Notes: a model not told the origin generated them from the sequence alone. DNA of 32,000 nucleotides from Planctomycetales bacterium (GCA_022646745.1 CP060262.1:1080001-1112000); one strand, 5' to 3'. Shown: positions 13,104-30,441, numbered from the stretch's first letter. A program made the numbers and translations.

Positions 13104-16100
13104 TTAATTGTCCTTCAGCATAAGCCTGATCGGATGTTCGGCGGCCCCGAGCGGGTCCCGGCCAATGCCCATCATGCACAGCCGGCCATCCAGTTCACAC
13201 AGTCCTCGCAGCCTGGTTTGCATCCAGGGGACCTCATAGTCCAGCTGAATTGGCGACCAGCTGAGTCCCGCCGCATCGCCAGCCTCGAACACGGCATTCT
13301 GGCGGCCCATGCTGCCATCGAAACTGGTCAGGCAGATCACAGGCAGCCCATTGACAACCGCATAATCAAGTCCCTCAAACACATAGCCCAGGTCCTCAAG
13401 CACAGTTCCCGCATCCCAGCTGCTTCCCACGGCATCAGTTCCACGCAGCATGTACAGCCTCGTATCCCAGCCGTAATGCTGGAAGCCAGCGGCGAACACC
13501 ACCGGCCTGGAGTCCAGTTCCACAAGCGCCTGCGCGGAGCGGCTGTCATGCAGCACCTGCGCTGCATCCCATGCGCTGCCCGTAGCATCCTGTGCCCTGC
13601 TGTACTGCAATTTCATCGTCCCACTGGATTCATATGTTGAATAGACAATCGCCGGGTGCCCGGCAATCGAAGCGGCATACAGGTAGTCAGCCCGCCGGCC
13701 CGTTGTCATCATGTACTGCCCGGCATTCCAGCTGCTGCCACTGGCATCCGCCGCCCGGTGCATCCAGATTTCGTAGGAGGGGGCATTGTAGTTGCTGCGG
13801 AAAATGCTCGGGATTCCGTCAATCACGGCAAAGCAGGCGGTGTTCACATTGCTGGGCATGGCCAGTTCCAGCTTCTGCTCCCAGGCCTGCCCGCTGGCAT
13901 CAGTTGCCAGCATGAAGTGGATCAGTTCGTCATCCGGGTCATTGCCCCTGGTGCAGACATAGGGCACACCTGCAATGTCACCGGCCCCCAGCAGCCTGCC
14001 GTCATGGTTGACAAGCACCGGATCGGTTACCTGCGGCCCGCCACTCCAGTCCAGCTTGCGAAACAGGATCGAGCCGAGGCCGACCTCTGAGAAGTGGTAG
14101 ACATGCAGTTCGCTGCCTGTGTCATGCAGCAGCCCGCCGGACTCCGAATACATCTCGTCCGGTGAGGGTCCGGAGGGGATGTCACTGTCCAGGTAGTAGT
14201 CATGCCAGCCGTAGTACAGGTCTAGGGACAGCGGGTCAGATTCGTATCCAAGCTCGTCAACCACCACAAGGCGGATTGCCCTGGCCAGGCTGTCCCCCGG
14301 ATCTTCGAAAACGAGCACTGGATCCTTGCCTGCCACGTCCGGATCGTCCTGGCCCAGCCAGGTGTAGTACCAGCGGTACTCGGAGATCCCGCCGTGGATG
14401 CTGGCTGACGCAGAGGCATCAATTGTCACACTGCGGCCCGGCAGGCCGTACTGCTGGTCGATCTGCACACTGGCCTGCGGACGCTGCAGGACGTTGATCG
14501 TAAAGCTGCCATATGTATACTGGTTCAGCACATCCCTCAGCTGCAAGTCGATCTCATAGGTGCCTGGCTCGTCAAAGGAAACGTCGAAGTAATCGCTTGT
14601 CGAGTAATTCTGTGATGCATGGTCCGGTGCCGTCCACTGGTAGCTCAGAGCGCCACCGACCAGCGAATAGCACGAGTTGGCCCTGAATCTGAGCTTCTCA
14701 TCTGTCAGCACTGTTGCCGGCTCCTCGAAGTTCCAGACCAGTACAGGGTGGGGAGCGATGTCCAGCACGAGGCTGTCGGTGTCCGTCGAACCGAGGCTGT
14801 CACTGACTTCAAGCTCGACCAGCTTGGTGCCACCGGTCTCGAATACGTAATCGAATTCCACTTCGCTGTTTGCGAAGTCCTCGTCCACTTCGTCCGAGAA
14901 CGGGTTGTCAACAGACCAGCTGTAATCAAGCGCTGATCCCTCCGGGTCATGGCTGTCACTGCCGCTGAAGCTGATCTGCCAACCTGGTTGTGCCTCCAGT
15001 CTTGAAGCGCTCGCCACCGCGACCGGACGCTGATTGCCTGTCTGCGGAATCTGCGAAACCGTGACTGTCCTGCTGTCCACCGCCACTCCTCCGTATTCAT
15101 CGGATACGGTCAAGGTGCCGGTATAAATGCCGGTTTCCAGGTAGAAACTCTGCACGCTGTTGATTGCCACTGGACTATCGATCAGTGTTGCGTCAGCGCT
15201 GCGCAGCTTGAAGTGCAGCTGCAGGTCCAGGCCCTGTGGGCTGGAGCTTTCCGCAAAGCTGAAGTTCATCACCAGCGGGGAGAAACCCGATTCGTGGCTT
15301 GCCCGCAGGACAGCAGCCGGAGGCTCACCGACGACGAGCCGCTGGCTTGTCCAGTCCACGCCACCGTGGTCATCCGTTACCCTGAGCGAGACCTCGATGT
15401 CCACTGCGCTGTCATAGTAGCCACTCACCTGCTTCAGCTGCGGGCCGCTCAGTTCCAGCTGGCCATCGCCATCCAGGTCCCATTCATAGAGGACTATCTC
15501 TCCCGTTTCATCATTGCTGGCTGACGCGTCAAACGTGATCTTCTGCGGCACGGTGCCCAGCAGGTCATCCACCGTGAAACTGGCAACTGGCGGCGTATTG
15601 CGAAAGTGGCCAGCCAGGTTGCTGGCCGGGCCTTCCTCGTCCTCCGCCACGTTGTAGGTCGTCACGAAGTACTCCGCTGCGCCAAGCACCGGTGCGTAGT
15701 CGACGTACTGCTGGATGCCAAGGCCGGGAGAACTGCCGTCACGTAGTGCCACGCTCAGCGGTGCTTCCGGTGCATTCGGCCAGGGCAGCATTTCCGCTTC
15801 CGCGCCTGGCAGCCGGCGGTATACACGGTAGCCATCGAGACGTTCGCCGTAATGCCTGGCAATCGTTGCCAGGTCCCCCAGCCCGAGCAGGCCATTGTGG
15901 TCACCGTCTATCCGGGCCAGCCTCCAGTTCACCGGATCCGTGCGGAAATCCCCGGCCGGCTGGCGCAGCGGGTCGCCGGCTGTGCTGCCATCGACATATC
16001 CGATCGCCTGCCCGAAGTTGGCTGCCAGCGGCACGAGGTCGGAGCTTTCCACGAGGCCATTGCCATTGTAATCACCCTGCAGGTTGTCAGTCCACTGCAG

Positions 16101-16457
16101 CCTGACCAGGCTCTCGCCATCCACATCAATCTCCTCAGCCCGCAGGCTGAACACGCTGTTCGTGGGGTCGAGTGCGCCACTGCCTGACTGGGCTGCACTG
16201 GCCTGTGCAGCCAGTGTGGCACGCAGCTGGGCCTGCATGCTCCCGAGGAGCTGTTCATACTGCTCGTCGTTCCCGGCCTGCCTGAACCGCTGACCTGCCG
16301 GAATGCTTCCCTGCTCCGGGTCATCCGCAATGAAATTGCCATTTCCACCCGGTGAAGGCAGCTCAGTGTTCGATGCATTGATTCCGCATCCCGCATGGAA
16401 TAGCAGGCATACAGTGACGGACAGGATCAGCAGCGAGGTTCTTTTGATATCTTGCAT
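13104..16457 (-). CDS. Large exported lipoprotein: dockerin-like repeat pair + PKD-like array + Asp-box (BNR-like) C-terminal region; paralogue 1
   Basis: ORF 13104..16478. ATG 16457 (MQDIKRTSLLILSVTVCLLFHAGCG) has AGGA 6 nt upstream and avoids overlapping the upstream gene. Dockerin-like: GDYNGNGLVESSDLVPLAANFG and DGDHNGLLGLGDLATIARHYGE. PKD-like: FDASASNDETGEIVLYEWDLDGDGQLE...LRVTDDHGG, FSGSDSHDPEGSALDYSWSV...LEVSDSLGS. Asp-box-like: ATDASGQAWEQ, AADASGSSWNAG, AQDATGSAWDAA, GTDAVGSSWDAG, AGDAAGLSWSP. Confidence 0.85.
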   Translation of the reverse strand: MQDIKRTSLLILSVTVCLLFHAGCGINASNTELPSPGGNGNFIADDPEQGSIPAGQRFRQAGNDEQYEQLLGSMQAQLRATLAAQASAAQSGSGALDPTNSVFSLRAEEIDVDGESLVRLQWTDNLQGDYNGNGLVESSDLVPLAANFGQAIGYVDGSTAGDPLRQPAGDFRTDPVNWRLARIDGDHNGLLGLGDLATIARHYGERLDGYRVYRRLPGAEAEMLPWPNAPEAPLSVALRDGSSPGLGIQQYVDYAPVLGAAEYFVTTYNVAEDEEGPASNLAGHFRNTPPVASFTVDDLLGTVPQKITFDASASNDETGEIVLYEWDLDGDGQLELSGPQLKQVSGYYDSAVDIEVSLRVTDDHGGVDWTSQRLVVGEPPAAVLRASHESGFSPLVMNFSFAESSSPQGLDLQLHFKLRSADATLIDSPVAINSVQSFYLETGIYTGTLTVSDEYGGVAVDSRTVTVSQIPQTGNQRPVAVASASRLEAQPGWQISFSGSDSHDPEGSALDYSWSVDNPFSDEVDEDFANSEVEFDYVFETGGTKLVELEVSDSLGSTDTDSLVLDIAPHPVLVWNFEEPATVLTDEKLRFRANSCYSLVGGALSYQWTAPDHASQNYSTSDYFDVSFDEPGTYEIDLQLRDVLNQYTYGSFTINVLQRPQASVQIDQQYGLPGRSVTIDASASASIHGGISEYRWYYTWLGQDDPDVAGKDPVLVFEDPGDSLARAIRLVVVDELGYESDPLSLDLYYGWHDYYLDSDIPSGPSPDEMYSESGGLLHDTGSELHVYHFSEVGLGSILFRKLDWSGGPQVTDPVLVNHDGRLLGAGDIAGVPYVCTRGNDPDDELIHFMLATDASGQAWEQKLELAMPSNVNTACFAVIDGIPSIFRSNYNAPSYEIWMHRAADASGSSWNAGQYMMTTGRRADYLYAASIAGHPAIVYSTYESSGTMKLQYSRAQDATGSAWDAAQVLHDSRSAQALVELDSRPVVFAAGFQHYGWDTRLYMLRGTDAVGSSWDAGTVLEDLGYVFEGLDYAVVNGLPVICLTSFDGSMGRQNAVFEAGDAAGLSWSPIQLDYEVPWMQTRLRGLCELDGRLCMMGIGRDPLGAAEHPIRLMLKDN

Positions 16458-16465
16458 GAGTTTTC

Positions 16466-19400
16466 CTAGGGTGCCCATGGGGCGTCCAGCGGGTAATAGA
16501 TGTCCATCTTCCTGTTCCAGTGTCCAAGGTCGTCGCCATAAGTGAAGGTCAGCGGATAGCCATCGATGTCTAGCACCTTGCAGCTGAGCAGGGCTGACGG
16601 TCCGTAGTTGTCAACGAAACGCACCTCCGGCAGCCAGGCCTGGCCCGCACTGTCCGCCGCCTCCATGAAGCAGTGGCAACCACTCCAGTAACTGAGCACA
16701 GGCCGCCCCTGCAGCCAGTCCAGCTGTACCGGTTCCTGGCTCGGCAGGCTGGTCAGCCCGGGAATGTAGCTCCGGTTGGTCCAATCCCCTCCATCAGCGG
16801 CTGTCGCCCTCGCAAAGTAGAAGTCCTGTTCCTTGTAGTACCCCCTGCCAATCATCATGGCCACGGGCTTGCCGTCAAGTTCCACAAGATTGGCAACCAG
16901 CATGCCGTCATCCTGCTGCATGTCTATCGCCGGGTACCAGTCCTCTCCCCCTGCGTCCAGTGCTCTGGAGTAATAACTGCGAACGGGGTAGTTGCTGTTG
17001 TAGATGCTCCATGCCATCGCCGGTTTTCCCGCGACCACTGCCGCATACAGGTAGCATTCGTAGTAGGGTTGCTCGTGGTAGAGAATGATCTGTTCGTCTG
17101 ACCAGTCCGGCGATACCAGCGGATCCAGGTAGCGCATGGTGATGAACTGGTCACTGCTGTCCAGCATGATGATCCGGTCACCACTGAGCAGGAACTGGTA
17201 GTCCTGGTAATCCTGGTCCCCCCCGTAGCCAATGTATTCCGTCTCGGACCAGTTCGCCAGGCTCATGTCATCACTGACAATGTACCCGAGCGCATTTGGG
17301 CGGAAGAAGCAGACGTGCATCCGGCCCCCGATCACGGCTGCCAGCAGCGGCTGGCTCGCACCGGGCAGTTTCACCGGATCGGAAATCTGCAGTGATCCGC
17401 CTGCAGAGCTGATCTTCACCAGTGATCCGTTGTAGCCATCCTTCGGAAAGGCCAGGTAGCTGTCATCGCCATCCCTGGTACTGACGCAGTAATGCTTTAT
17501 GCCACGCCCACCCGGGCCGAAATGCAGGTCAATATCCGTGTCGATCCTGCCCCAGCCGGAGTTGAGATAATCCAGCGTGTACTTGGCCCAAGTGTCTTCG
17601 GCGTAAATCTCCAGGGTGACCCACATGCTGCCTTCCCACTGGAAGGGCTGGTGCTCGAATATCGGTTCCGAGGTTTCGATCACCTCGCCAGTCTGCAGTT
17701 TCCAGCGGTACTTCTGGATCCGTGCTCCGATGCTGCCGCTGGCATCGAATTCAACCACCCGGCCAGATGGGCCTTCCCGCTCCCGCAGTTCACTGACTGA
17801 TTTCGGGGCCGGTGCGTACTCTATCTCCAGGCTGGCAGTGTCGCTCAGCCCGATGCTGTCCGTGATCCTTACGCCAAGATTGATCAGGCCGGTGCCGGCC
17901 GGGGCTGTCAGGTTGACAATAGTGCCGGCATCCAGCGTTTCGAAGCTGCCGTCCCCATCAAGGTCCCAGTCGTAGGTCACTGGTCCGAATGTGAATACAT
18001 TGCTTGAAGCTGCCGAGTATTGCCGCGTGGTGCCGGCACGCATCCAGTCCTTTCCACTGATTTCGGCGATCGGTGGACCACCAATGCTGACCTGGGTATT
18101 GTTCGTTGCCGTATGGCCCTTGTCATCCGTGACGCTCAGCACCACATACTTGGTTCCGCCGGTTGCAAAGGACAGGCTGGCAAGCGCTTCATTCTCACCT
18201 GAGATGAACTGCGCTCCGTAGGCGCTCCATGCATACTGGACTATCGTGCCGACATTGCTGAAGCTCTGGCTGCCATCGGCCGTGATCACTTCACCTGGCG
18301 CTGCGATCTCAGTACTGAGCTCTATCACCGGTTGTGGCCTGTCATCATAACCCCACACCCGCAAGGACCTTGTCACAGCGGAGGTCCGTTGCTCTGAATC
18401 CGTGGCCAGCAGCCTGATTTCGTAGGTACCAGGCACCGGTAGTTTGAGGATGCCTTCGTAGTAGTCCGTATCGAAGAGTATCTCCCTGGGCTCCGGGCCT
18501 GTCACTTCCACCTTGCGGAGGATGACGGGAAGGAGGCCGGGGATCACCTCAGCACTGAGCAGGATGCCATCGTAGGTAAAGGTATCATCCGAGGAAAGGT
18601 TGAGCTTGACCTGCGGGGCACCGTCGACGGCGATCAGCCGGCTCAGTTCGGCTGTCCGGCCGAAGTTGTCAGTCACGAGCAGCCGGCAGCTGAAGCCGCC
18701 TGATGTTTCATATGTATGCTGCGCCAGCTGCGAATCCCCGGACTGGTCGATGCTGCCATCGCTATCAAAGTCCCAGGCATAGTCCAGGATCTCACCGTAC
18801 TCACAGGTGCTGGCCGAGGCATCAAACGCCACCGGCAGCGGACTGTCACCTGCTGCGGGCACAGCGCTGAACTCCGCAATGAGCTCACCCGGCCTCGTGT
18901 AATCCAGCGGCAGGCTCAGTGACCCCTCCGCTCCGGCGGCAATCGTGTACGGTGCCACGGAAAGCGTATGCACGCCGATTTCAGGCAGCTTGACAATGAA
19001 GCTGTAGCGCCGGTTGTTCAGCGCGATGATTTCGCTGTCCAGCCGGGAGATGCTCATCGGCGCTTCCGGCAGGCCCGGCCAGGGCAGCAGCTCGGCTTCC
19101 GCCCCGTTGAAGCTGTGGTAGACCCGGTAGCCGTCCAGCAGTTCGCCGAAGTGCTGCGCGATCGTTGTCACATCCGCCAGGCTGATTATGCCGTCGCGGT
19201 TGCCATCCACGCGGGAGCGCTCCCAGTTCGTCGTATCCCAGCCGTAGTAGTTGCCGTCCGGCCAGTACGCCACGCCATTGGCATCCAGCGGATCACGATA
19301 GGCAACAACTTCATCGAAATGCCTTGCCAGCGGCACGAGGTCCGCTGCATTGACCTGGCCGTTCCCGTCGTAGTCGCCACGCAGCACTTCCGTCCAGCTC

Positions 19401-19756
19401 AGTTCATACAGGTTGCCAGAACCGGGCAGTTCCTCAATCACCAGGCTGAATACCTCATTGCCTGCGCCGACGGCTGCCTCAGAAATGCCGCGGTCAGTGG
19501 TCTCACCGAGCTGCCGCGATAGCTCGCGCTGCAGTTCATCAAGCAGGCCGGACTGCATGTTTCCGATGCTGGCTGCAATATCCGCATCAGCGGATATCAC
19601 TTCGTTGGCAGCGGGAGCAGACGATCCCGGCTGGTTCGCCGCCTGTGTGGTAACACTGGAGTTGCCGGAGCATGCCGGCAATGCAAGCGCAAATGTAAGG
19701 GACAGCAGCCGTGCCGCCGTCCGCGGGCCTGTCGTCCGCAGCAATCTCAGATCCAT
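16466..19756 (-). CDS. Large exported lipoprotein: dockerin-like repeat pair + PKD-like array + Asp-box C-terminal region; paralogue 2
   Basis: ORF 16466..19768. ATG 19756 gives MDLRLLRTTGPRTAARLLSLTFALALPACSG (lipobox); 19768 is an alternative start. Dockerin-like: GDYDGNGQVNAADLVPLARHFDE and DGNRDGIISLADVTTIAQHFGE. PKD-like: FDASASTCEYGEILDYAWDFDSDGSID...LLVTDNFGR, VQYAWSAYG...LSVTDDKGH, VTYDWDLDGDGSFE...VRITDSIGL. Asp-box-like: ALDAGGEDWYP, ATAADGGDWTN, AADSAGQAWLP. Collinear with paralogue 1 (shared LDGYRVY..AEAE.LPWP..PEAP). Confidence 0.85.
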   Translation of the reverse strand: MDLRLLRTTGPRTAARLLSLTFALALPACSGNSSVTTQAANQPGSSAPAANEVISADADIAASIGNMQSGLLDELQRELSRQLGETTDRGISEAAVGAGNEVFSLVIEELPGSGNLYELSWTEVLRGDYDGNGQVNAADLVPLARHFDEVVAYRDPLDANGVAYWPDGNYYGWDTTNWERSRVDGNRDGIISLADVTTIAQHFGELLDGYRVYHSFNGAEAELLPWPGLPEAPMSISRLDSEIIALNNRRYSFIVKLPEIGVHTLSVAPYTIAAGAEGSLSLPLDYTRPGELIAEFSAVPAAGDSPLPVAFDASASTCEYGEILDYAWDFDSDGSIDQSGDSQLAQHTYETSGGFSCRLLVTDNFGRTAELSRLIAVDGAPQVKLNLSSDDTFTYDGILLSAEVIPGLLPVILRKVEVTGPEPREILFDTDYYEGILKLPVPGTYEIRLLATDSEQRTSAVTRSLRVWGYDDRPQPVIELSTEIAAPGEVITADGSQSFSNVGTIVQYAWSAYGAQFISGENEALASLSFATGGTKYVVLSVTDDKGHTATNNTQVSIGGPPIAEISGKDWMRAGTTRQYSAASSNVFTFGPVTYDWDLDGDGSFETLDAGTIVNLTAPAGTGLINLGVRITDSIGLSDTASLEIEYAPAPKSVSELREREGPSGRVVEFDASGSIGARIQKYRWKLQTGEVIETSEPIFEHQPFQWEGSMWVTLEIYAEDTWAKYTLDYLNSGWGRIDTDIDLHFGPGGRGIKHYCVSTRDGDDSYLAFPKDGYNGSLVKISSAGGSLQISDPVKLPGASQPLLAAVIGGRMHVCFFRPNALGYIVSDDMSLANWSETEYIGYGGDQDYQDYQFLLSGDRIIMLDSSDQFITMRYLDPLVSPDWSDEQIILYHEQPYYECYLYAAVVAGKPAMAWSIYNSNYPVRSYYSRALDAGGEDWYPAIDMQQDDGMLVANLVELDGKPVAMMIGRGYYKEQDFYFARATAADGGDWTNRSYIPGLTSLPSQEPVQLDWLQGRPVLSYWSGCHCFMEAADSAGQAWLPEVRFVDNYGPSALLSCKVLDIDGYPLTFTYGDDLGHWNRKMDIYYPLDAPWAP

Positions 19757-19899
19757 AGTCGTTCCCATTGCGGAACCAGTCCAGCCCCGACTGTCCCGTC
19801 TACAGCGTACAGCACTTCCCCAGTGCAGTAGATATATGGACGGCTATCAAGCTGCGAGGTTACAGATGAGGACGCTGCCCCGGTACTGACATGACCGGC

Positions 19900-20011: not shown

Positions 20012-22525
<2,514 letters not shown>

Positions 22526-22622
22526 ATGTTCTCAGACTCTCCGTGGCGGCGGCACCCTTGCCGCCGTCATCATTGCCCCGCCGGTGCCATCCTGGCACCA
22601 ACCGATTCGCCCCGCTCATGCA

Positions 22623-22691
22623 AGGCCAGATGTAGGGAAGGGCTACCATGCCCTTCCAATAGGGTGTCATGATGCATGCATCATGGCACAC
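22623..22691. repeat. 69-nt direct repeat, copy 1 (in the clpC leader)
   Basis: 62/69 identical to 22847-22915. Contains hairpin GGAAGGGC-TACCAT-GCCCTTCC (22636-22657) and the palindrome listed separately. Confidence 0.9.
22664..22689. promoter_or_regulatory. Perfect 18-bp palindrome CATGATGCATGCATCATG (22668-22685; 26 bp with one mismatch); candidate operator in the clpC upstream region
   Basis: Self-complementary, read directly. On the clpC (minus) strand it lies just downstream of the AT-rich GGTATATATAAAGGG stretch (22692-22706), the only -10-like string in this GC-rich leader. The second repeat copy has a degenerate version. Function is inferred. Confidence 0.35.
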
Positions 22692-22846
22692 CCTTTATAT
22701 ATACCTTGTGAGACCCCGGTTCACCTGAAACGGGACACTCGGAAGATTAACACGGGGTGAATTGACGTGCGATGCAAAAGGGGAGAAGACCATGAGAGTC
22801 GAGTGCACAGCACGAAATCACGCCGAAGGCGTGACCCATCCATCCG

Positions 22847-22915
22847 AGGCCAGATGTAGGGAAGGGCTACGATGCCCTTCCAACAGGATGCCAAGAAGCA
22901 CGCATCATGGCACAC
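22847..22915. repeat. 69-nt direct repeat, copy 2 (22 nt beyond the methyltransferase stop)
   Basis: Same element as 22623-22691. Hairpin GGAAGGGC-TACGAT-GCCCTTCC is conserved; the palindrome half is degenerate. Confidence 0.9.
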
Positions 22916-22937
22916 ATTTAACTTATGAAAGAATAAA

Positions 22938-25900
22938 TCAACTTAGTAGTGCAGACTTTCCCATCCTGTATTTCAATTGATAATTACAAATGTAATCTAA
23001 TTCATGCTTACTCATATGTAGAGCTTCTGCAAGTCTTACATCTAATTCATCAATTATTGCTTTGCACCTACTGGGCTGAAACTGCTGATATGTTACGGAT
23101 CCAGCAATACTATGTTTTGTTGGTATCATTTTACTATTTTCTAAAAGACAGTTCCAAAGTGATTCATTAATGCTTTTGAAATTTAGTTCCAATATTGACT
23201 TAGAAATCGGAAAATCCTTCACATCTCCGGGATTAAAATCGCGGCAATTGGTATTCATTATGTAGTATATGTAAAACAGTGAGCTATTGAAAAGTGCAAA
23301 TGCGAGATTCATTATCTGCTCATCCTTACACGGCATTACTGCTTCGCGGGTAGAGTTACCAACGACATTGTTATTAATGTACTTAGGAGGTTCTAACGTT
23401 ATTGTAAACCAATGTGCTATCCCTGTTTTCTTGTAATAGACATTGTAATCGCTCTTTCTTTTCAACTGAGAACCGAATCTGAGATTGCCATCTTTGAGTT
23501 TCGAATCAATTGATATTTGATGACGATCGCCATATTTCGGAATACAATTGTCATATTGATGTTCCTTATGCAATGCAAACATGATCTTCGAAGTAAACAA
23601 ATCCTCACGTTCGTCTTGATACCATTTAAGATATGAAGTTGTTCGAACCTGTTGATATTTAGTTGTTCTAGCCCTCAAATAGATTGCTAATCTAAAGTTT
23701 ACTCCATTAAACAGAACACTTGGATGTGCATCGGCACTCAAATTAATTATGAACAGTTGGCAATTACTACAATAGTGTTTATTAATCAGTGGGTTCATTC
23801 TGATTGTGCTATGACCACTCAGCGGCACAATCATAGAATCAATTCCGGTTGTTGAAACAAGATTTGAAACTCTTTCAATTATAAATGCGTAAAGATTGCC
23901 ACATTTCAGGGTATCATAGTTGATAATTTTATATTCCTTTATACCTCTAGGGTATTCTACGTATGGAGGATTCCCTATTACAACATCAAAACCCCCTTTT
24001 GAAACAATCCCGTGGAATTCTGCCCACCAATGAAATGGTGCGTGCTTGGTTTTCCATTTTAGATATTCGACAGTATTATCTGGATCTACTTTGTACTGTC
24101 TTGCTAAGTATTGATTCAGTTTGTTTGTCAAGTTAGATAATGCAACAATCAATTTCTCCTTCTCATCGCTAAACACCAAAGCACTTACGCCGGTTTGAAC
24201 TTGAAGATTTCTGTACTTGCGATACTGCTGATCTACATTCGATGCCGCATCTTTTATTGCTGGCAACTCATCCTCAAAATCAAATGAGGCATTTCCGCCT
24301 ATCGGTTGAAGTGCCCTTTTAACATCCATTTCGTTTGCAAAACCCACTAGCGAATTTCCAGCCCTGATATTGAAATCAATATCCGGCAGTGGCTCAATCT
24401 TCCCCACATCATCAATCTGGGCTACTAGCTTCAGGAATAGCCGGAGTTTGCAGATCTCACAGGCCTCATCCATTATGTCCACTCCATAGAGGTTGTCCAC
24501 AGCTATGGATTTCAGAATGAAGTACTCGCGGTTCGGATGCTGTGCAATGTTGTCCAGGACCTGTTCAAAGAACTTCTCATCGCCCAGGAAGGGCTTTCCC
24601 GCCGCATGCTTGTCGGATACATAGTCATTCATCCTGTTCAGGCAGGCATCGTATAGGGGCTGCAGCACATTGAGAGCTGCGAACAGGAAAGCACCACTGC
24701 CGACCGTCGGGTCCAGAACTGTAATGCCCAAGCTGACCTCCCCGCGGTGCACAGCGGTATGGTCACCATGCAAGGCGATCCAGCAGGCCTTGATCAGGTC
24801 CGTTCCCCCGGCAAGTTCAATCACATCCTGCATGAACTGGCGGATATCCAGGTTGTAAGTGATCAGGTCATTGATTTCGTGGAGATCCCCTCTGCTGAGT
24901 TTCTCCCTCAGCTCCAGGCAGCGTTGCCTGCGCTCTGAATATTCACGCCAGGTTTCCGTTGGCAGGCCAAGTTCGTCTCCAACCAGCCCGAGGTTATAGC
25001 GCTTTTCGAACATGCGCTTCTCTGGGTCCTGCATGCCTATCTTCACAAAGTCAGGCAGAGTATCCTCTGGAATGATGCCCCCATCTTCGTTAACCACACC
25101 CTTGCGAACTGCATCGTAGATATACCTGTCTGGGTCTTCCTGCAGCAGCTTCCAGACTGAGCCACCCTTCTCAAACGCAACAGCGCACTGCTCCTTCATG
25201 CGTTGCAGGATGAAAGGGATAATCGTGTTCTGGCTGATGTAACCTGTGATGTCCTCCTTCGTGTAGTAGGCCCCCATTTGCTTCTGGTTGATGTACTTCT
25301 CAAAGATGTAGCCAAGGACGTCCGGGTTGATTTCCTTGTCGTTGACAATCGCTGTCTCGTCAAGGTGCCACTTGAACTCATCAAAGAAGGCAAACAGCTT
25401 GTCAAATGCCTTGTCCGGGATGTCGATCTGCTCCCCACAGTGCTGCTCAACCTGGTGCTTCATGAAAAGGCCGCCGTTCAGATATGGCACCTGCTCCAGC
25501 AGTTCGTTCATCTTCTTTGAGCGGTCAGACTCTGGCTTGGCAAAACCCTCAAAGAACAGCGGGCAGAGGAATCTCCGGTAGTAGCTGTCCTTGCCAAGGT
25601 TCTTCTTTGCATACTTGAGGCGTTCTGAAAGGTAATCTATGTCCCCGTTGCCAAGGAACCCGCGCTTCTGGATGAAATAGATGAACATCAGCCGGTTGAT
25701 CATCACTGACACATACCAGCTCTGCTCATGGGCGTCATCAATTCCCGTAATGAGCTTTTCAAAGGCCTTGCGTTCCTTGTCAAACTTAGTGTAGAAGCTC
25801 TTTGTAACCTTGTCCTTGTTGAAGGCCGAACGCAGCCTTCCTGTTACATCGAGGATGTTGAGATTGCCAGCCTGCTCAAAGCTGAAACTGAATTTCTGCA

Positions 25901-26297
25901 GTGTCTGCAGCATCAACTCACCTGATTGTTGCCTGTTGAACTCCAGACTACGGGAAACCCGACGGCCATCTTCACGGTTGAACCAGTTCCAGAGCTGCTT
26001 CTCTTGTTTTGCATCGACAAAAATCAGGAGGTGCTCATGGGCTTGCTTCCTGATCTGCACGTGCAGCCTTGAACGGTGTGGGGTTATCGGAATCTGGCCG
26101 TTCTTGCCTGGATGCACCAGGAATATCTGCACGCCCTCCTGATCGGCGATAGCTTCAATCTTGTAGCTTTCGCCATCAAGCTTGATCGGGTCTATCCTGT
26201 TCTCATTCCTGCCCCAACCCAGTGCTTCCACGAACAGGTTACGGAAATCAAAAGCCTGGAGATACTTCCTAGCAAGTTCCTTATTGAAGGCAGCCAT
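22938..26297 (-). CDS. Gamma-class N6-adenine DNA methyltransferase, MmeI/PglX/Eco57I-like, with a C-terminal specificity region
   Basis: ORF 22938..26300. ATG 26297 overlaps the upstream TGA (TGATG), with GAGGTGA upstream. Motif X: QMGAYYTKEDIT. Motif I: VLDPTVGSGAFLF (nt 24681-24719). Motif IV: VVIGNPPYV (NPPY = nt 23961-23972). Helical-region strings RLMFIYFIQKRGF, YLNGGLF and INPDVLGYIFEKYIN are typical of MmeI/PglX/type ISP enzymes. About 340 aa follow NPPY and end in an LDVRLAEALHMSKHELDYI helix, as TaqI-C/TRD-type domains do. Confidence 0.92.
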   Translation of the reverse strand: MAAFNKELARKYLQAFDFRNLFVEALGWGRNENRIDPIKLDGESYKIEAIADQEGVQIFLVHPGKNGQIPITPHRSRLHVQIRKQAHEHLLIFVDAKQEKQLWNWFNREDGRRVSRSLEFNRQQSGELMLQTLQKFSFSFEQAGNLNILDVTGRLRSAFNKDKVTKSFYTKFDKERKAFEKLITGIDDAHEQSWYVSVMINRLMFIYFIQKRGFLGNGDIDYLSERLKYAKKNLGKDSYYRRFLCPLFFEGFAKPESDRSKKMNELLEQVPYLNGGLFMKHQVEQHCGEQIDIPDKAFDKLFAFFDEFKWHLDETAIVNDKEINPDVLGYIFEKYINQKQMGAYYTKEDITGYISQNTIIPFILQRMKEQCAVAFEKGGSVWKLLQEDPDRYIYDAVRKGVVNEDGGIIPEDTLPDFVKIGMQDPEKRMFEKRYNLGLVGDELGLPTETWREYSERRQRCLELREKLSRGDLHEINDLITYNLDIRQFMQDVIELAGGTDLIKACWIALHGDHTAVHRGEVSLGITVLDPTVGSGAFLFAALNVLQPLYDACLNRMNDYVSDKHAAGKPFLGDEKFFEQVLDNIAQHPNREYFILKSIAVDNLYGVDIMDEACEICKLRLFLKLVAQIDDVGKIEPLPDIDFNIRAGNSLVGFANEMDVKRALQPIGGNASFDFEDELPAIKDAASNVDQQYRKYRNLQVQTGVSALVFSDEKEKLIVALSNLTNKLNQYLARQYKVDPDNTVEYLKWKTKHAPFHWWAEFHGIVSKGGFDVVIGNPPYVEYPRGIKEYKIINYDTLKCGNLYAFIIERVSNLVSTTGIDSMIVPLSGHSTIRMNPLINKHYCSNCQLFIINLSADAHPSVLFNGVNFRLAIYLRARTTKYQQVRTTSYLKWYQDEREDLFTSKIMFALHKEHQYDNCIPKYGDRHQISIDSKLKDGNLRFGSQLKRKSDYNVYYKKTGIAHWFTITLEPPKYINNNVVGNSTREAVMPCKDEQIMNLAFALFNSSLFYIYYIMNTNCRDFNPGDVKDFPISKSILELNFKSINESLWNCLLENSKMIPTKHSIAGSVTYQQFQPSRCKAIIDELDVRLAEALHMSKHELDYICNYQLKYRMGKSALLS

Positions 26298-29200
26298 CAA
26301 TCAGTCACCTCGTTACGCAGCCCCATTGAACAGATAATCTGCGGTTCTTCATTCGGGCCTTCCGTTGGCAGGGAGCAAAGCCTGCCATCCTTGCGCAATG
26401 CAAGAACGGATTCCGCCAACTGGTGATCAGCAGCCTTAAGCCGCATCTGCCTGTTCAGGACATCCGTTGCATGGCCCGTCAAGGGATAGTTATAAATTTC
26501 CTGGATTGCTTCCTTGAGTGTTGTCAATTCCTCAGTACTGGCAAACAGGGAGTTCTTCTGTCTTTCAAGGTACCCGGACATTTTCTCATATGTCCGGTAG
26601 CGTGCACCCCGTGGGTTGCCAAGCTGGCCTCCCGCAAGCCTCGCCTGATCAGCAATCAGCAGTGCCCCCTGGGCGACCAGCTCATGGTGGTTTTCCAGTC
26701 TGCCTATGGCAGGCGTGGCCGCCGTACATTCGGCAATTTCAAGGATCCTGCTCTGGGACTCTGTCACGCTGTTTCCATTTTCATCCAACCACGCGAGGGC
26801 ATCCTGTCCCTCGCCGGTCCTCATGTAAAGCAATACTCCAGTGGGCGCATTCTCCCGCGGGTCATGCTGCTTAGTTGAATAGACCACGTTTGGCAGGGCA
26901 GGAATGATCTTCTTCAGCTTTGGATCAGCATCAGATGCATTCTTCCAGATCTGGTATGCACGTGATGTGAGATCAACGTCATCATCCTCCAGGTCATCCA
27001 GAGCAGATGACTTCTCGGTATAAAGGTCTCGCAGGTGCTGCTCAGGCATTGCATCCTCGAAGCCATATTCCTCATCAGTGCCAATAACCAGTGCATTTTC
27101 GCGAAGGCGGTTCTGCACCTTGCGCCGCAGCAGGATGATGTTCTCCACCCCTTCTGCCGGCAGGAAGGTGTAGCAGTAAATGCTGTCACTCTTCTGCCCG
27201 ATGCGATCAACACGGCCAGCCCGCTGTATCAGCCTGATGATTGCCCAGGGAATATCAAAGTTCACCACGATTGCGCAGTCCTGCAGGTTCTGTCCTTCGG
27301 ACAGGATGTCAGTTGTCAGCAGGACTCGGTGCTCATCCTCCGGCTTGATTCGATGCCTCTGCTCATTGCTGTCAGGGCTGAAGCGATATGCTGCCTCTGT
27401 GGGGTTGGAGGATGAACCAGTCACGCAGGCCAGCTTGTCAATTCCTGTGTCTGTCAGCTCGTTGTAAAGATACCTCACAGTATCTGCAAACTGAGAGAAT
27501 ACGAGGAACTTGGAACTTGGATGCTGCGCCAGCAGTGTCTTTAGTTCCTTTAGCTTGTTGTCCTTTGATGAGTCCCAGTTGCCAAACAACTCAAGCAGGC
27601 TGATGAGCGCTTCACAATCCTCAGAAAGATGCTCTGCAAGTTTCCCCGTCAGCAAGCTGCTGCGCAGCCACTTGTATCTCTTGCCAGTGCGGGACCGCAT
27701 CCAGTCATAATGCTGGCGAGCTAGATCCTTGAGTCCCGCTATTGCATCAGCAGTTTGCAGGTTCTCATCTGACTCGAACTCGGATTCGGAATCTTCATTG
27801 AGGAACTCGAGTTCGCCCTGGGCGCTGTCAACATCCTCGTCTGAATAGCGCGCATTCTGGATGCCTGCATCTAGGGTGCCGATGGGCACATCCAATCCGT
27901 TTTCGATCGCATATAGGAAAATGAAGTTTCGCAACAGGTGACTTCTAAGTGACAGTAAGAACACCTGTCCGCTGCTCTCCAGCCGCTTGAAAAGATTCGT
28001 ACGACAGAACCCGATAAGCCGCTGGCCAGCTTTGGTGAGATTTGCAAGCTGCTCCTTCTCTGAAGTAGTCGGTGCCTTGACAGGTACTTCATCGATGTAA
28101 CTTGCCAGGCCGTAGCGCGGCAGATGAAGCCGGTTTATCACCTTGACAACTTCATCGCTGTACATCAGTGCGTACTGATCAGTTTGGTCTTCATCATCAA
28201 CGGAAAACTTGATGGTCTTCGGAACTCGCTTGGGCAGGTAGAACCTGCGATCATCAGCGAATTCCATGTAATGGCGATCCTTCTGTTCGTCCAGCACTGC
28301 ATAGTTTGTCTTAATAAAAGAACGCGTGCGACGAACCATATACAGGCGCATCAGCTCCTGCCAGTCTTCCGTGTAGTCGCTGAGCATGAATGCCTTCAAA
28401 GTGTTTGGCTGGCATTGATGCTTGGCGGAAAAGACCGTCGCACTCATGGAGCGAAACAGTCTCTCGGGACGAAGTGTTAGTGCTTTTTCTGCATCAAGGA
28501 ACAGGTTGAGCTGGTTGCCAAGGTCCAGGAAGCACTTGTTGTATGGCGTAGCTGTCAGCAGAATGCACTTGCTGTCATTCTTGCCAATGTAATCCTGTAC
28601 GGTCTTGAATACCCGAGAGTCAGAGTTCCTCAGGTTGTGGCTCTCGTCGATAATCACTAGCCTGAAGCGCTTGAGATCCGGCAGCTCCTTGTTGACCATG
28701 CTCATTGACATCACCTGAGCATTGACAGCGAACTGTGTGCGGTAATCATTCCACATCGGTACAAGATTCTTTGGACAGATGATCAGAGTCTCATATGAGT
28801 AATCTTCCTGAATGACTTTTGCCAGTGCAGTTGCCATCAGGGTCTTGCCCAGTCCAACCACGTCCGCAAGCATGACGCCACCACGATTGATCAAGTGCCG
28901 AGCAGCAATCAATACCGCCTGCTCCTGGAAGGGCAGGAGTTTCCCCTGCATATCCTTGGGAATGGCAAAAGTTGCCAACCCTGCGCGTGCTTCCTGGGAA
29001 AGGTGGTACGCCATCTTGAGGTAGATATGATAAGGAGGCGGATCATCGGGACCAGCCCAGCTCTCCTCAATAATGTCAATCAGAGCTTGCGTGATGTCAA
29101 GGCTGCAGCGGTCATTCCAGCGTTCCTCAAACCAGTGGGCAAGTTTGTCCGCTGCATCGTTGTCAGTTACTTCCGTGTTCAATTCACCCTGAAGTGAAAG

Positions 29201-29704
29201 TCCGGACTTGGTCAGGTTGCTGCTGCCAAGGTAGCCTACCCTTGGCGTGATATTGTCATTTCTGTGGCATAGGTAAAGTTTCGCGTGCAGGCTATGCCTG
29301 AGGAATACCTTTACCTTTAGCTTTCCTGCGCGCAGCTGACCAACCAGCCGTTGCAGGCCAGCCTCGTCCTCTCCAGTGGGAATGCCAAACTCAAGTTGCT
29401 TGCGGAACTGCCTGGCTATTTCATCCTGCATTTCCTTAAGCTGCTTGTTATCCGGTGCTTCATGATCACCCTTGAGGGAATGCAGGCTGGCTTTCAGTTC
29501 ATCGTCAAGTGTGTAGCCCATCCCGACAAGCAGTCGGCAATAGTCGTTCTCTATGCCAGAGAATTTCTCGATTTCGGAGTCAATGATCTTCCAGCCACGA
29601 AGGTTAAAGTAACCAACGCTGAAGTCTGCCCTGTGAGAACCCTGTAGCGTTTCTCTTAGCGCAGGGGCTAATTCATTTTCTATGTTGTCGAAGATACGTG
29701 GCAA
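26297..29704 (-). CDS. Fusion protein: N-terminal PLD-family (single HKD) nuclease domain + SNF2-family helicase/ATPase + unassigned C-terminal domain
   Basis: 1135 aa. TTG start at 29704 with AAGAGG 6 nt upstream. PLD motif: LHAKLYLCH...GYLGSSNLT (aa 139-165). SNF2 motifs: LLPFQEQAV, DVVGLGKT (aa 281-288), IIDESHNLRN (351-360), LLTATPYNK, TTDILSEGQNLQDC, IQRAGRVDRIGQ (826-837). The stop TGA (26297-26299) overlaps the methyltransferase start. Confidence 0.92.
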   Translation of the reverse strand: MPRIFDNIENELAPALRETLQGSHRADFSVGYFNLRGWKIIDSEIEKFSGIENDYCRLLVGMGYTLDDELKASLHSLKGDHEAPDNKQLKEMQDEIARQFRKQLEFGIPTGEDEAGLQRLVGQLRAGKLKVKVFLRHSLHAKLYLCHRNDNITPRVGYLGSSNLTKSGLSLQGELNTEVTDNDAADKLAHWFEERWNDRCSLDITQALIDIIEESWAGPDDPPPYHIYLKMAYHLSQEARAGLATFAIPKDMQGKLLPFQEQAVLIAARHLINRGGVMLADVVGLGKTLMATALAKVIQEDYSYETLIICPKNLVPMWNDYRTQFAVNAQVMSMSMVNKELPDLKRFRLVIIDESHNLRNSDSRVFKTVQDYIGKNDSKCILLTATPYNKCFLDLGNQLNLFLDAEKALTLRPERLFRSMSATVFSAKHQCQPNTLKAFMLSDYTEDWQELMRLYMVRRTRSFIKTNYAVLDEQKDRHYMEFADDRRFYLPKRVPKTIKFSVDDEDQTDQYALMYSDEVVKVINRLHLPRYGLASYIDEVPVKAPTTSEKEQLANLTKAGQRLIGFCRTNLFKRLESSGQVFLLSLRSHLLRNFIFLYAIENGLDVPIGTLDAGIQNARYSDEDVDSAQGELEFLNEDSESEFESDENLQTADAIAGLKDLARQHYDWMRSRTGKRYKWLRSSLLTGKLAEHLSEDCEALISLLELFGNWDSSKDNKLKELKTLLAQHPSSKFLVFSQFADTVRYLYNELTDTGIDKLACVTGSSSNPTEAAYRFSPDSNEQRHRIKPEDEHRVLLTTDILSEGQNLQDCAIVVNFDIPWAIIRLIQRAGRVDRIGQKSDSIYCYTFLPAEGVENIILLRRKVQNRLRENALVIGTDEEYGFEDAMPEQHLRDLYTEKSSALDDLEDDDVDLTSRAYQIWKNASDADPKLKKIIPALPNVVYSTKQHDPRENAPTGVLLYMRTGEGQDALAWLDENGNSVTESQSRILEIAECTAATPAIGRLENHHELVAQGALLIADQARLAGGQLGNPRGARYRTYEKMSGYLERQKNSLFASTEELTTLKEAIQEIYNYPLTGHATDVLNRQMRLKAADHQLAESVLALRKDGRLCSLPTEGPNEEPQIICSMGLRNEVTD

Positions 29705-29851
29705 TTATTAGCCTCTTAACAACCCACCGGTTAGTTCCTCGGCGTTGGCATTTCGGGCCGTCGCCACTGGGAATTTATCATAGCATTAACAATCCCAGGC
29801 CGCTGGGCTCTGGGCTCGGGCCTGTCTTCCAACGTGTCGCAATTCCGGGGC

Positions 29852-29952
29852 GTAACGATACGTAGGCCCCAAACCTGCGGCCAGTGGCCTGTCGCATTTA
29901 TGCGATGTAACGATACAAAGGCCTGCTCCCTGCGGCCAGCGGCCTGTCTCAT
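29852..29952 (+). repeat. Tandem repeat with 55-nt period (two 46-nt cores, 37/46 identical), plus a partial earlier copy
   Basis: 29852-29897 is GTAACGATACGTAGGCCCCAAACCTGCGGCCAGTGGCCTGTCGCAT. 29907-29952 is GTAACGATACAAAGGCCTGCTCCCTGCGGCCAGCGGCCTGTCTCAT. GGGCCTGTCTTCC at 29818-29830 looks like the tail of a third unit. Palindrome TCGCATTTATGCGA at 29892-29905. Confidence 0.8.
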
Positions 29953-29977
29953 CCCTGTTCGACACTGATACCTTCTG

Positions 29978-30103
29978 AACACTGCCCACTGTTAACTGCT
30001 CACTGATTAACATCCCACATCCCCCATCCCGCATCCCGCTCCTGTCTCATCCCCTTCTCCCAACTGCGACCCCCTGATCCCCGGTCCCCGGTCCCAGGTC
30101 CCT
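29978..30103 (+). repeat. Three successive heptanucleotide arrays: (NNCACTG)x4, (ATCCCNN)x4, (GGTCCCN)x4
   Basis: 29978-30005: AACACTG CCCACTG TTAACTG CTCACTG. 30012-30039: ATCCCAC ATCCCCC ATCCCGC ATCCCGC. 30076-30103: GATCCCC GGTCCCC GGTCCCA GGTCCCT. Coordinates were cross-checked against flanking ORF-track boundaries. Confidence 0.9.
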
Positions 30104-30169
30104 GATTAACAACCGGTCCCCTGTACCAGTTGTCAGCAGAAAAACCCCGATTGTTGGGACATTTTCCGG

Positions 30170-30213
30170 CTGGAGGGGCTGCCGAGGGGGTCTGGAGGGG
30201 TGCTCAGGGGGGT
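30170..30213 (+). repeat. Tandem 22-nt G-rich repeat
   Basis: CTGGAGGGGCTGCCGAGGGGGT / CTGGAGGGGTGCTCAGGGGGGT. Five G4-G6 runs between 30174 and 30251. Confidence 0.85.
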
Positions 30214-30313
30214 CTCGCGACAGTTAGGTTAATAACGTCCGCAAAGGGGGGATCAGGCCCGATGGATACTGCCGATGCCGCCGGTGGCCGGGGATTAACT
30301 GTTAAAAGAGTAA

Positions 30314-30348
30314 CCAGTGGTCAGTGGTCAGTGGGCAGTAGGAACAGT
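30314..30348 (-). repeat. Heptanucleotide array in the opposite orientation (CCAGTGG TCAGTGG TCAGTGG GCAGTAG GAACAGT)
   Basis: This is the reverse complement of the CCACTGA/CTACTGC-type units seen elsewhere in the window. Confidence 0.9.
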
Positions 30349-30351
30349 TGA

Positions 30352-30441
30352 AATAGTATTGATAGTTTCAATAGTCAGATTTGAGAACGGACACTCCCGT
30401 GTACTCACTATTCGCACTATTCAGACTATCCAAACTATTCA
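30352..30441. repeat. Inverted pair of 9-nt-period arrays: (nATAGTnnn)x3 and (nACTATnCn)x4 around a 27-nt spacer
   Basis: 30352-30378: AATAGTATT GATAGTTTC AATAGTCAG. 30406-30441: CACTATTCG CACTATTCA GACTATCCA AACTATTCA. The hexamer cores are mutually complementary. The pair lies 44-133 nt upstream of the transporter start. Confidence 0.85.

Follow-up and report, generated by a model that had tools for sequence, protein, structure and literature searches.

A PLD-SNF2 fusion protein paired with a gamma-class adenine methyltransferase: a candidate two-gene restriction-modification system in a Planctomycetales bacterium

A two-gene operon between clpC and a transporter gene

The DNA analysed here, referred to as the window, is a stretch of 32,000 nucleotides (nt) from a Planctomycetales bacterium (CP060262.1:1080001-1112000). 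Its minus strand carries an operon of two genes, coding for a PLD-SNF2 fusion and an adenine methyltransferase, which we consider as a candidate restriction-modification system. Both open reading frames (ORFs) are intact and were called at 26297..29704 and 22938..26300. The first, gene 1, encodes a PLD(HKD)-SNF2 fusion of 1135 amino acids (aa), the predicted restriction (R) subunit, based on the ORF, Pfam matches and the agreement of its N-terminus with homologues. Within the second, gene 2 (22938..26297) encodes a gamma-class N6-adenine DNA methyltransferase of 1119 aa, the predicted M/S subunit with a built-in target-recognition region, based on Pfam (Eco57I) and PADLOC. An exact-sequence look-up in GenBank returned UNM09289.1, labelled 'NgoFVII family restriction endonuclease', for gene 1 and UNM09288.1, labelled 'SAM-dependent methyltransferase', for gene 2; together with UNM09287 (ClpC) these are three consecutive proteins.

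The junction between the genes (26295..26311, minus strand) reads GAT TGA TGG and is that of translational coupling, with base 26297 common to the stop codon TGA of gene 1 (26299-26297) and the ATG of gene 2 (26297-26295), and with GAGGTGA at 26311-26305 ahead of that ATG. Gene 1 starts with a TTG codon (29704-29702) preceded by the Shine-Dalgarno sequence AAGAGG (29717-29712; feature 29702..29717, minus strand), and translation from the TTG at 29704 gives (M)PRIFDNIE, the N-terminus conserved among the aligned homologues. The GC content is 33-57% over 22900-29800 versus 60-70% in the flanks; most of the operon is at about 51%, and a block from 22938 to approximately 24400, the 3' part of gene 2, is at 33-40%. 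The neighbour on the stop side of gene 2 is ClpC (20012-22525), and the neighbour on the side of gene 1 is an SLC12/amino-acid-permease-type transporter on the plus strand with its start near 30490, identified by reading the sequence and from the Pfam families of its orthologue in a sister genome. The initial annotation, made from the sequence of the window, had described one coupled operon standing in a low-GC island between clpC and a transporter, and the sequence reading, the GC profile and the neighbours all agree with that description.

The product of gene 1 matches PLDc_2 (E value 2.9e-10), RE_NgoFVII (E value 2.6e-6; 27.3 bits, above the cutoff of 23.8), SNF2-rel_dom (E value 4.5e-14) and Helicase_C (E value 3.1e-15). 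The single HKD/PLD nuclease domain extends over approximately aa 1-205 (29090..29704, minus strand), with the PLDc_2 and RE_NgoFVII matches on aa 120-201, and contains the catalytic residues H140 and K142 in the motif LHAKLY followed by GSSNLT at positions 160-165. Next comes an SNF2-type SF2 ATPase core at approximately aa 245-836 (27197..28972, minus strand), delineated by matches to SNF2-rel_dom, ResIII, DEAD and Helicase_C, of which ResIII covers only the generic DEAD-box region (aa 336-388). Its N-lobe carries GLGKT and DESH and is separated by a long insert from the Helicase_C lobe, which carries QRAGRVDRIGQ. H140, K142, GSSNLT, GLGKT, DESH and QRAGRVDRIGQ are all invariant in an alignment of 20 gene 1 homologues, which was made without the first codon and whose residue numbers are one below the full-length numbering. 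The order of a PLD motif and then SNF2 motifs, as initially annotated, is therefore upheld by the Pfam matches and by the family. The best PDB matches by sequence are SNF2 remodellers and RapA, and otherwise only generic SNF2/DEAD helicases.

The C-terminal domain of gene 1 (aa 878-1135, 258 residues; 26300..27073, minus strand) is conserved, has no Pfam match even at E<=10, and was modelled with AlphaFold2 (AF2) at a predicted local distance difference test score (pLDDT) of 69. When this model was compared with the PDB using Foldseek, the top match was the C-terminal part of RapA, which at an E value of 0.03 is not significant, and none of the modified-base reader folds (SRA, YTH or EVE-like) appeared with what is a moderate model. 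The residues C993, H1006/H1007, C1110 and C1125 (full-length numbering) are invariant or nearly so, and may form a metal site.

The product of gene 2 matches the Eco57I methylase family (E value 1.3e-20), while MmeI_Mtase falls just under its threshold (25.6 bits, cutoff 27) and DUF7814 just over it (30.4 bits, cutoff 27). The catalytic region at approximately aa 340-790 (23928..25280, minus strand), delineated by the Eco57I and MmeI_Mtase matches and by motifs, has the motif order X (GAYYT, 342-346), I (DPTVGSGAF, 529-537) and IV (NPPY, 776-779), which is that of the gamma class. In an alignment of 26 sequences no substitution occurs at G342-Y345, D529, G533-F537 or N776-P778, and the positions T346, P530, T531 and Y779 are almost invariant; the gamma-class assignment of the initial annotation thus stands.

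The target-recognition region and the conserved C-terminal helices of gene 2 occupy aa ~800-1119 (22941..23900, minus strand), as delineated by column conservation and GC content. Conservation is 0.35-0.49 over aa 800-1050 and higher again in the C-terminal helices, and this dip is the pattern of a putatively swappable recognition region. Identity to the best homologue is 57% in the N-terminal half and 37% in the C-terminal half, and this difference, together with the separate GC content of the 3' half of the gene, points to module exchange; the specificity half seems to have an origin other than that of the rest of the system. No long inverted repeats are present in or beside gene 2, and thus no invertible specificity cassette is found at the window locus, unlike the Bacteroides loci of Milman et al. 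(PMC9881135).

The N-terminal domain of gene 2 (aa 1-145; 25863..26297, minus strand) is specific to the family and has the topology a-a-b-b-b-a-b-b-b-a in an AF2 model with a pLDDT of 88.9. The residues G27, W28, E88, H89, W103, W105 and G111 are invariant. The domain has no Pfam match at E<=10, its model has no PDB fold at E<0.001 in Foldseek, and gene 2 as a whole has no PDB match by sequence; SAS-6, SPARDA and HPF appeared as weak Foldseek matches with template-modelling (TM) scores below 0.4 and were rejected. A profile of the domain matched 1488 cluster representatives (50% identity). Among the 150 listed, it is N-terminal in 149, and the full-length proteins are of approximately 1040-1190 aa; the only exception, P0275 (1050 aa), is matched in four stretches, the best of them at 628-741. 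We propose that this is a docking or coupling domain for the PLD-SNF2 partner.

Obligate pairing and a strain-variable slot

A profile scan with gene 1 of species-representative genomes gave at least 600 matches, and the best 80 loci, which come from more than 20 phyla, were examined with up to 10 kilobases (kb) of flanking sequence. Starting from gene 1, a gene 2 homologue was found on the same strand at 74 of the 80 loci (72 downstream and 2 upstream), and at the remaining six the contig ends within 420 nt downstream of gene 1. A scan of metagenomes in the opposite direction, with the gene 2 profile, gave 80 loci; at 71 of them gene 1 is the neighbour on the same strand (upstream in 69, downstream in 2), and the other nine have less than 800 nt of upstream sequence. 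When both directions are combined, every informative locus is paired (145/145), and the pairing of the two genes is obligate. At E<=1e-10 each protein has at least 8000 cluster representatives (90% identity), and thousands of full-length homologues per protein exclude chance. The recurrence of the two genes as an isolated adjacent pair, which had been put forward with the initial annotation as a way to check it, is thus established across genomes.

All-against-all clustering of the flanking ORFs revealed no conserved third gene, and no DrmA/B, PglZ, BrxC or DUF499-like family recurs at the 80 genome loci. The earlier statement that the window holds no DISARM or BREX partners is correct, and extends to these related loci. 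The commonest neighbour besides antisense shadow ORFs is a small DprA-like protein (PF02481) at 21 of 75 loci (28%), which is absent from the window and which we regard as an optional third component. This protein has 150-230 aa and is encoded on the same strand downstream of the methylase, directly after it in several loci (for example L033 16725-17255, L023 16931-17488 and L054 17554-18015).

At about one-fifth of the loci an insert of 0.4-1.9 kb with diverse content separates the two genes. Inserted genes were observed at L001, L007, L011, L022, L024, L029, L030, L034, L036, L049 and L054, as well as on the Synechocystis plasmid locus L081 (10478-11111). Read from their translations, the inserted ORFs are PIN/VapC toxins, KilA-N-like proteins, a P-loop NTPase-like protein of 575 aa, Uma2 and DUF3800 proteins, and AlbA_2/Schlafen-like regulators of about 570 aa. 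Hitchhiker genes inside an operon are familiar from Type I restriction-modification systems. In cyanobacteria and actinobacteria members of the family lie on plasmids, and there was also a match to a Halorussus record; among viral contigs there are only about 13 true members, the other matches being distant SNF2/PLD proteins.

A member of the family has been studied in Synechocystis PCC 6803. Along its full length Slr6050 shares 41% identity with gene 2, and the gene order on plasmid pSYSX is a "helicase-related protein" gene (PLD-SNF2; WP_011153866, pSYSX 43696-47151), an antitoxin-sized ORF and a VapC toxin gene, and slr6050, annotated as "DNA methyltransferase". The enzyme was named M.Ssp6803IV, and its one-strand motif GAm6AGGC (m6A, N6-methyladenine) was assigned tentatively, by elimination and with REBASE, without direct proof (PMC6105098, Hagemann et al. 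2018). In the same study the slr6050 deletion never fully segregated, and the upstream gene was not mentioned (PMC6105098). Such a failure to segregate is what would be expected if a cognate restriction activity were live. Beside the pair on pSYSX, at L081 14915-17435, lie genes for DUF6527, ThiF/E1, E2/UBC and multiubiquitin-domain proteins, a cluster that we read as a ubiquitin-like (Bil-type) defence system; on this reading the pair would sit in a defence island on that plasmid. The same pairing was also recorded in passing in Bacteroides by Milman et al. in 2023, and was neither named nor tested there (PMC9881135).

In the Planctomycetales genome the operon occupies a strain-variable cargo slot at 22528..29714, as defined by blastn against the sister genome L082 (GCA_041395205.1). 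The two genomes are collinear on both sides, clpC being 94% identical up to 22527 and the transporter 92% identical up to 30520, and the only part of the gene 1 leader in common is a patch of 77 nt (29791-29715) with 97% identity. No similarity to gene 1 or gene 2 was found in L082 by tblastn. Its slot (L082 3400-10000) is filled with about 6.3 kb of different DNA of 39-46% GC that has short ORFs only, among them an N6_N4_Mtase fragment of 39 aa and pieces that resemble TnsA/RE_endonuc and PDDEXK_5 below the thresholds. This content may be a decayed restriction-modification system, in which case the intergenic site would be a hotspot for defence cargo. The operon itself is horizontally acquired, strain-variable cargo.

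The remaining proteins of the window are PKD-domain proteins, a papain-type protease and PQQ-like beta-propeller proteins, and none of these genes in the 32,000 nt is a defence partner for the pair. Scans of the window for tRNA and Rfam families gave no matches, and so no tRNA-linked integration site was found in it; promoter and terminator scans gave counts not higher than those of shuffled controls. The spacer of 412 nt that separates the stop codon of gene 2 from clpC contains two copies of an 86-nt element (22617-22702 and 22841-22926) that are 84% identical and lie inside the strain-variable segment. Both copies have a GC-rich hairpin, GGGAAGGGC...GCCCTTCC, and the element could serve as a terminator or, alternatively, be a small repeat element. 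The leader upstream of gene 1 (29796-30400) is non-coding and dense in short repeats, among which are two tandem copies of 55 nt with 75% identity (29835-29944), runs rich in G (GGGATG and GGGACC), CCACTGA repeats, and a 29-nt inverted pair at 29981-30009 and 30311-30339. Downstream of clpC, at 13104-19768, are two adjacent PKD-domain genes coding for about 1100 aa each, unrelated to the operon, with 83% DNA identity to the sister genome, where a third copy is present.

A proposed two-subunit mechanism and its relatives

With a probability that we put at about 0.7, the pair is a self-contained, two-subunit, ATP-dependent restriction-modification system in which the methylase provides the specificity and the PLD-SNF2 protein cuts. 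Behaviour of the restriction-modification kind is suggested by the variable region of distinct GC content between conserved flanks, by the hitchhiker genes, by the occurrence on plasmids and by the strain-variable slot. In the proposed mechanism gene 2 would read a short asymmetric site through its own variable region and would methylate one strand of the host DNA. At unmodified sites it would recruit or license gene 1, probably through the N-terminal domain; tethering of this kind would parallel the loading of Res by the Type III Mod protein and the directing of MtsD by MtsC in the MANTIS system. The SNF2 motor of gene 1 would then travel on double-stranded DNA using ATP, and the HKD half-sites of two gene 1 chains would pair into one nuclease centre and cut the unmethylated DNA. 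Since each chain has a single HKD motif, an active site would require two chains, and dimerisation is suggested by likeness to BfiI, MtsD and SauUSI. The asymmetric m6A motif and the essentiality of the methylase are borrowed, tentatively, from the Slr6050 homologue. Hemimethylation of the host site and cutting by gene 1 are likewise predictions, and there may be a requirement for two sites or for a given site orientation. The initial annotation had proposed a methylation-guarded, ATP-driven PLD module working by a Mod/Res logic, and as far as comparative evidence reaches that proposal holds.

The closest characterised system is MANTIS/Gao_RL, which comprises a DUF499 ATPase (MtsA), MtsB, an N6A methylase that hemimethylates asymmetric sites of 6 bp, and a dimeric PLD-SF2 effector whose two chains share one active site (bioRxiv 10.64898/2026.09.23.753747). 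The effector, directed by the methylase, restricts phage and plasmids, and the system favours inverted site pairs (bioRxiv 10.64898/2026.09.23.753747). Common to MANTIS and the pair are a single effector with HKD/PLD and SF2 ATPase parts, an N6A methylase with a specificity region, and methylation-guarded restriction, the last being predicted for the pair. In contrast, MANTIS needs the MtsA loader and MtsB for methylation, neither of which is in the window or conserved near the homologues. Furthermore, gene 1, although alike in architecture, is only a distant relative and not an MtsD equivalog, scoring 139 against a cutoff of 1100 with NF042964 (phospholipD_antiphage), and has an SNF2/RapA-like motor with an extra C-terminal domain of about 260 aa, while gene 2 is an Eco57I/IIG-like protein of about 1100 aa with a unique N-terminal domain. 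The BREX-related 'BR' systems (PMC12839542) were also considered and set aside, being defined by a DUF499 ATPase that is absent at the window locus.

The logic of the pair resembles that of Type III systems (Mod/Res, EcoP15I), which also consist of two genes and in which the methylase recognises the sequence for an SF2 motor-nuclease; a further likeness, the asymmetric site with one strand methylated, comes for the pair from the tentative GAAGGC of the homologue. The parts are, however, non-homologous. Mod belongs to the beta class of methylases and gene 2, which is Eco57I-like, to the gamma class; the nuclease of Res is a C-terminal PD-(D/E)XK domain, and that of gene 1 an N-terminal HKD domain on a motor of the SNF2 family. 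The Type IIG/IIL enzymes (MmeI, Eco57I, Cj0031) have the same layout of methyltransferase core, recognition region and C-terminal helices as gene 2, which as in those enzymes joins a gamma-class N6A methyltransferase and a recognition region in one polypeptide, but gene 2 has no PD-(D/E)XK endonuclease of the MmeI N-terminal type in the same chain, and it always stands with a PLD-SNF2 gene, which classical IIG enzymes do not need.

SauUSI has, like gene 1, an HKD nuclease and an SF2 motor and cleaves in an ATP-dependent manner, but it is solitary, methylation-dependent and equipped with its own recognition domain, while gene 1 always stands with a methylase. The CglI/NgoAVII systems likewise combine an HKD/PLD nuclease with an SF2 motor, of which only the PLD part matches gene 1 (RE_NgoFVII); they differ in having the PLD nuclease (with a B3 domain) and the DEAD-Z1 motor as two proteins, and in their C5 methylase. 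HKD-SF2 fusions recur as PbeA, which works with a CxC ABC ATPase and DndE (PMC10853773). Class 1 DISARM has an SNF2 protein, a PLD nuclease and a large N6A methylase; its defining DrmA/DrmB (DUF1998) is absent from the window, the PLD and SNF2 parts are fused in gene 1, and the DrmD and DrmMI equivalog scores of the pair are weak. BREX differs in that its PglZ and BrxC are both missing from the window and from related loci. In agreement with these comparisons no NCBIfam model scored over its cutoff on the pair (NF038317 DrmD 129.7 against 610, NF042964 as above, and NF033452 PglX 64 against 500).

Classification with PADLOC gave a full-length match of gene 2 to PDLC03628 REase_MTase_IIG (874 bits; positions 5-1114 of the protein and 4-1096 of the 1100 of the profile), so that classifiers would call the locus a restriction-modification system of type IIG. 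For gene 1 the best match was 'C3a139 HKD+Snf2' at 161 bits, a model that goes back to a listing of accessory genes of type III CRISPR and was rejected as the identity of gene 1, being a distant relative only; lower matches included DrmMI at best 60.9 bits for gene 2 and PLD_Helicase at 78.5 bits for gene 1. The suggestion that the system is undescribed is thus right only in part, since the gene 2 family is known as PADLOC IIG and as M.Ssp6803IV, the pairing was recorded by Milman et al., and the MANTIS effector is alike.

Alternative readings and meaning for the family

Several points weigh against the two-subunit system. Restriction by the MANTIS PLD-SF2 effector is not yet reconstituted in vitro (bioRxiv 10.64898/2026.09.23.753747), and a full-text search of the literature, with subscription-only papers outside its scope, found no paper that names or tests the two-gene pair. 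The slr6050 mutant could have failed to segregate from other causes. The N-terminal domain of gene 2 might be an inactive, degenerate restriction-endonuclease fold, with which its a/b topology is compatible. To these are added the database label of gene 2, an HSDR_N similarity and the strong conservation of gene 1, all of which are taken up with the alternatives that they favour.

Gene 2 might be an autonomous Type IIG enzyme, with gene 1 as an auxiliary such as a SauUSI-like Type IV enzyme or a back-up nuclease. Besides the full-length PDLC03628 match, this reading could draw on the label 'Type IIG' (self-cleaving) that PADLOC and REBASE give to the family, on Milman et al., who call such methylase genes homologues of the Type IIG enzyme Cj0031 (PMC9881135), on the PLD-plus-SF2 architecture that gene 1 has in common with SauUSI, and on the a/b sandwich topology of the gene 2 N-terminal domain together with the weak HSDR_N similarity described for Slr6050 (PMC6105098). 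The PADLOC label is, however, taken to stem from predicted REBASE types and not from assays of the gene 2 family. Neither MmeI_N nor any nuclease Pfam family was found on gene 2, even at E<=10. Its N-terminal domain matches no PDB fold significantly, and a D...(D/E)xK motif is not conserved in the family alignment; K53, although almost invariant, is replaced by Gln in the protein from the window, and Slr6050 has Ser in place of E88. We conclude that gene 2 carries no recognisable nuclease. A Type IV partner is further disfavoured by the lack of a modified-base reader fold in the C-terminal domain of gene 1, and neither the pairing at 145 of 145 loci nor the translational coupling is expected of independent systems. 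Overall, we regard an autonomous IIG enzyme as unlikely.

The pair could alternatively be a non-defence epigenetic or DNA-transaction module, acting in gene regulation, in repair, or in plasmid maintenance by addiction only. Gene 1 is about 55% identical across phyla, with a mean column identity of 77% in the 20 homologues; this is unusually high for a defence gene and could point to a housekeeping-like role. In addition, the ATPase and C-terminal part of gene 1 have their top, weak PDB matches in RapA, which recycles RNA polymerase; the methylase behaves in Synechocystis as if it were essential; and 28% of loci have a DprA-like gene linked to the pair. Nevertheless, none of the HKD nuclease residues varies, the operon sits in a slot that is low in GC and differs between strains, members of the family occur on plasmids, the recognition region is hypervariable and, in Bacteroides, invertible, toxin and Abi-like genes are inserted in the operon, and the pSYSX pair stands beside the cluster read as ubiquitin-like defence. 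A role outside of defence is for these reasons quite improbable.

Least probable of all is that the pair is a fragment or remnant of class 1 DISARM, BREX or MANTIS/BR type 2 with the other genes lost or located elsewhere, as the partial matches of gene 1 (DrmD, BrxHII, DpdE, PbeA, phospholipD_antiphage) and gene 2 (PglX, DrmMI) might suggest, since the NCBIfam scores are all far under their cutoffs, the flanks are housekeeping genes with cargo boundaries set by the sister genome, none of the DrmA/B, PglZ, BrxC or DUF499-like families recurs, and both proteins are intact and highly conserved.

For the two-subunit restriction-modification system, then, the parts, the logic and the pairing have been seen before and the methylase family is catalogued; what had been missing is the recognition of both genes as one system. 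The pair looks like a common restriction system, present in more than 20 phyla and so far unnamed. For the bolder proposal, that it represents a widespread, unclassified ATP-dependent type in which an SNF2 motor with a half-site HKD nuclease is steered by an IIG-like methylase through a new 145-aa adaptor fold, we would give about even odds. If this is true, two proteins without a loader ATPase do what MANTIS does with four, and many 'Type IIG' genes in the databases are mis-typed, their restriction activity residing in the 'helicase-related protein' encoded next to them. In current annotation the two genes appear separately, one as "Type IIG" or "SAM-dependent methyltransferase" and the other as "helicase-related protein"; should the real nuclease be the PLD-SNF2 protein, defence censuses and REBASE typing mislabel a common system. 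The pair would then be a minimal two-protein model of a methylase passing unmodified sites to a motor-nuclease, comparable with Type III and MANTIS, and Synechocystis PCC 6803, in which the methylase is apparently essential, would be a tractable system for it.

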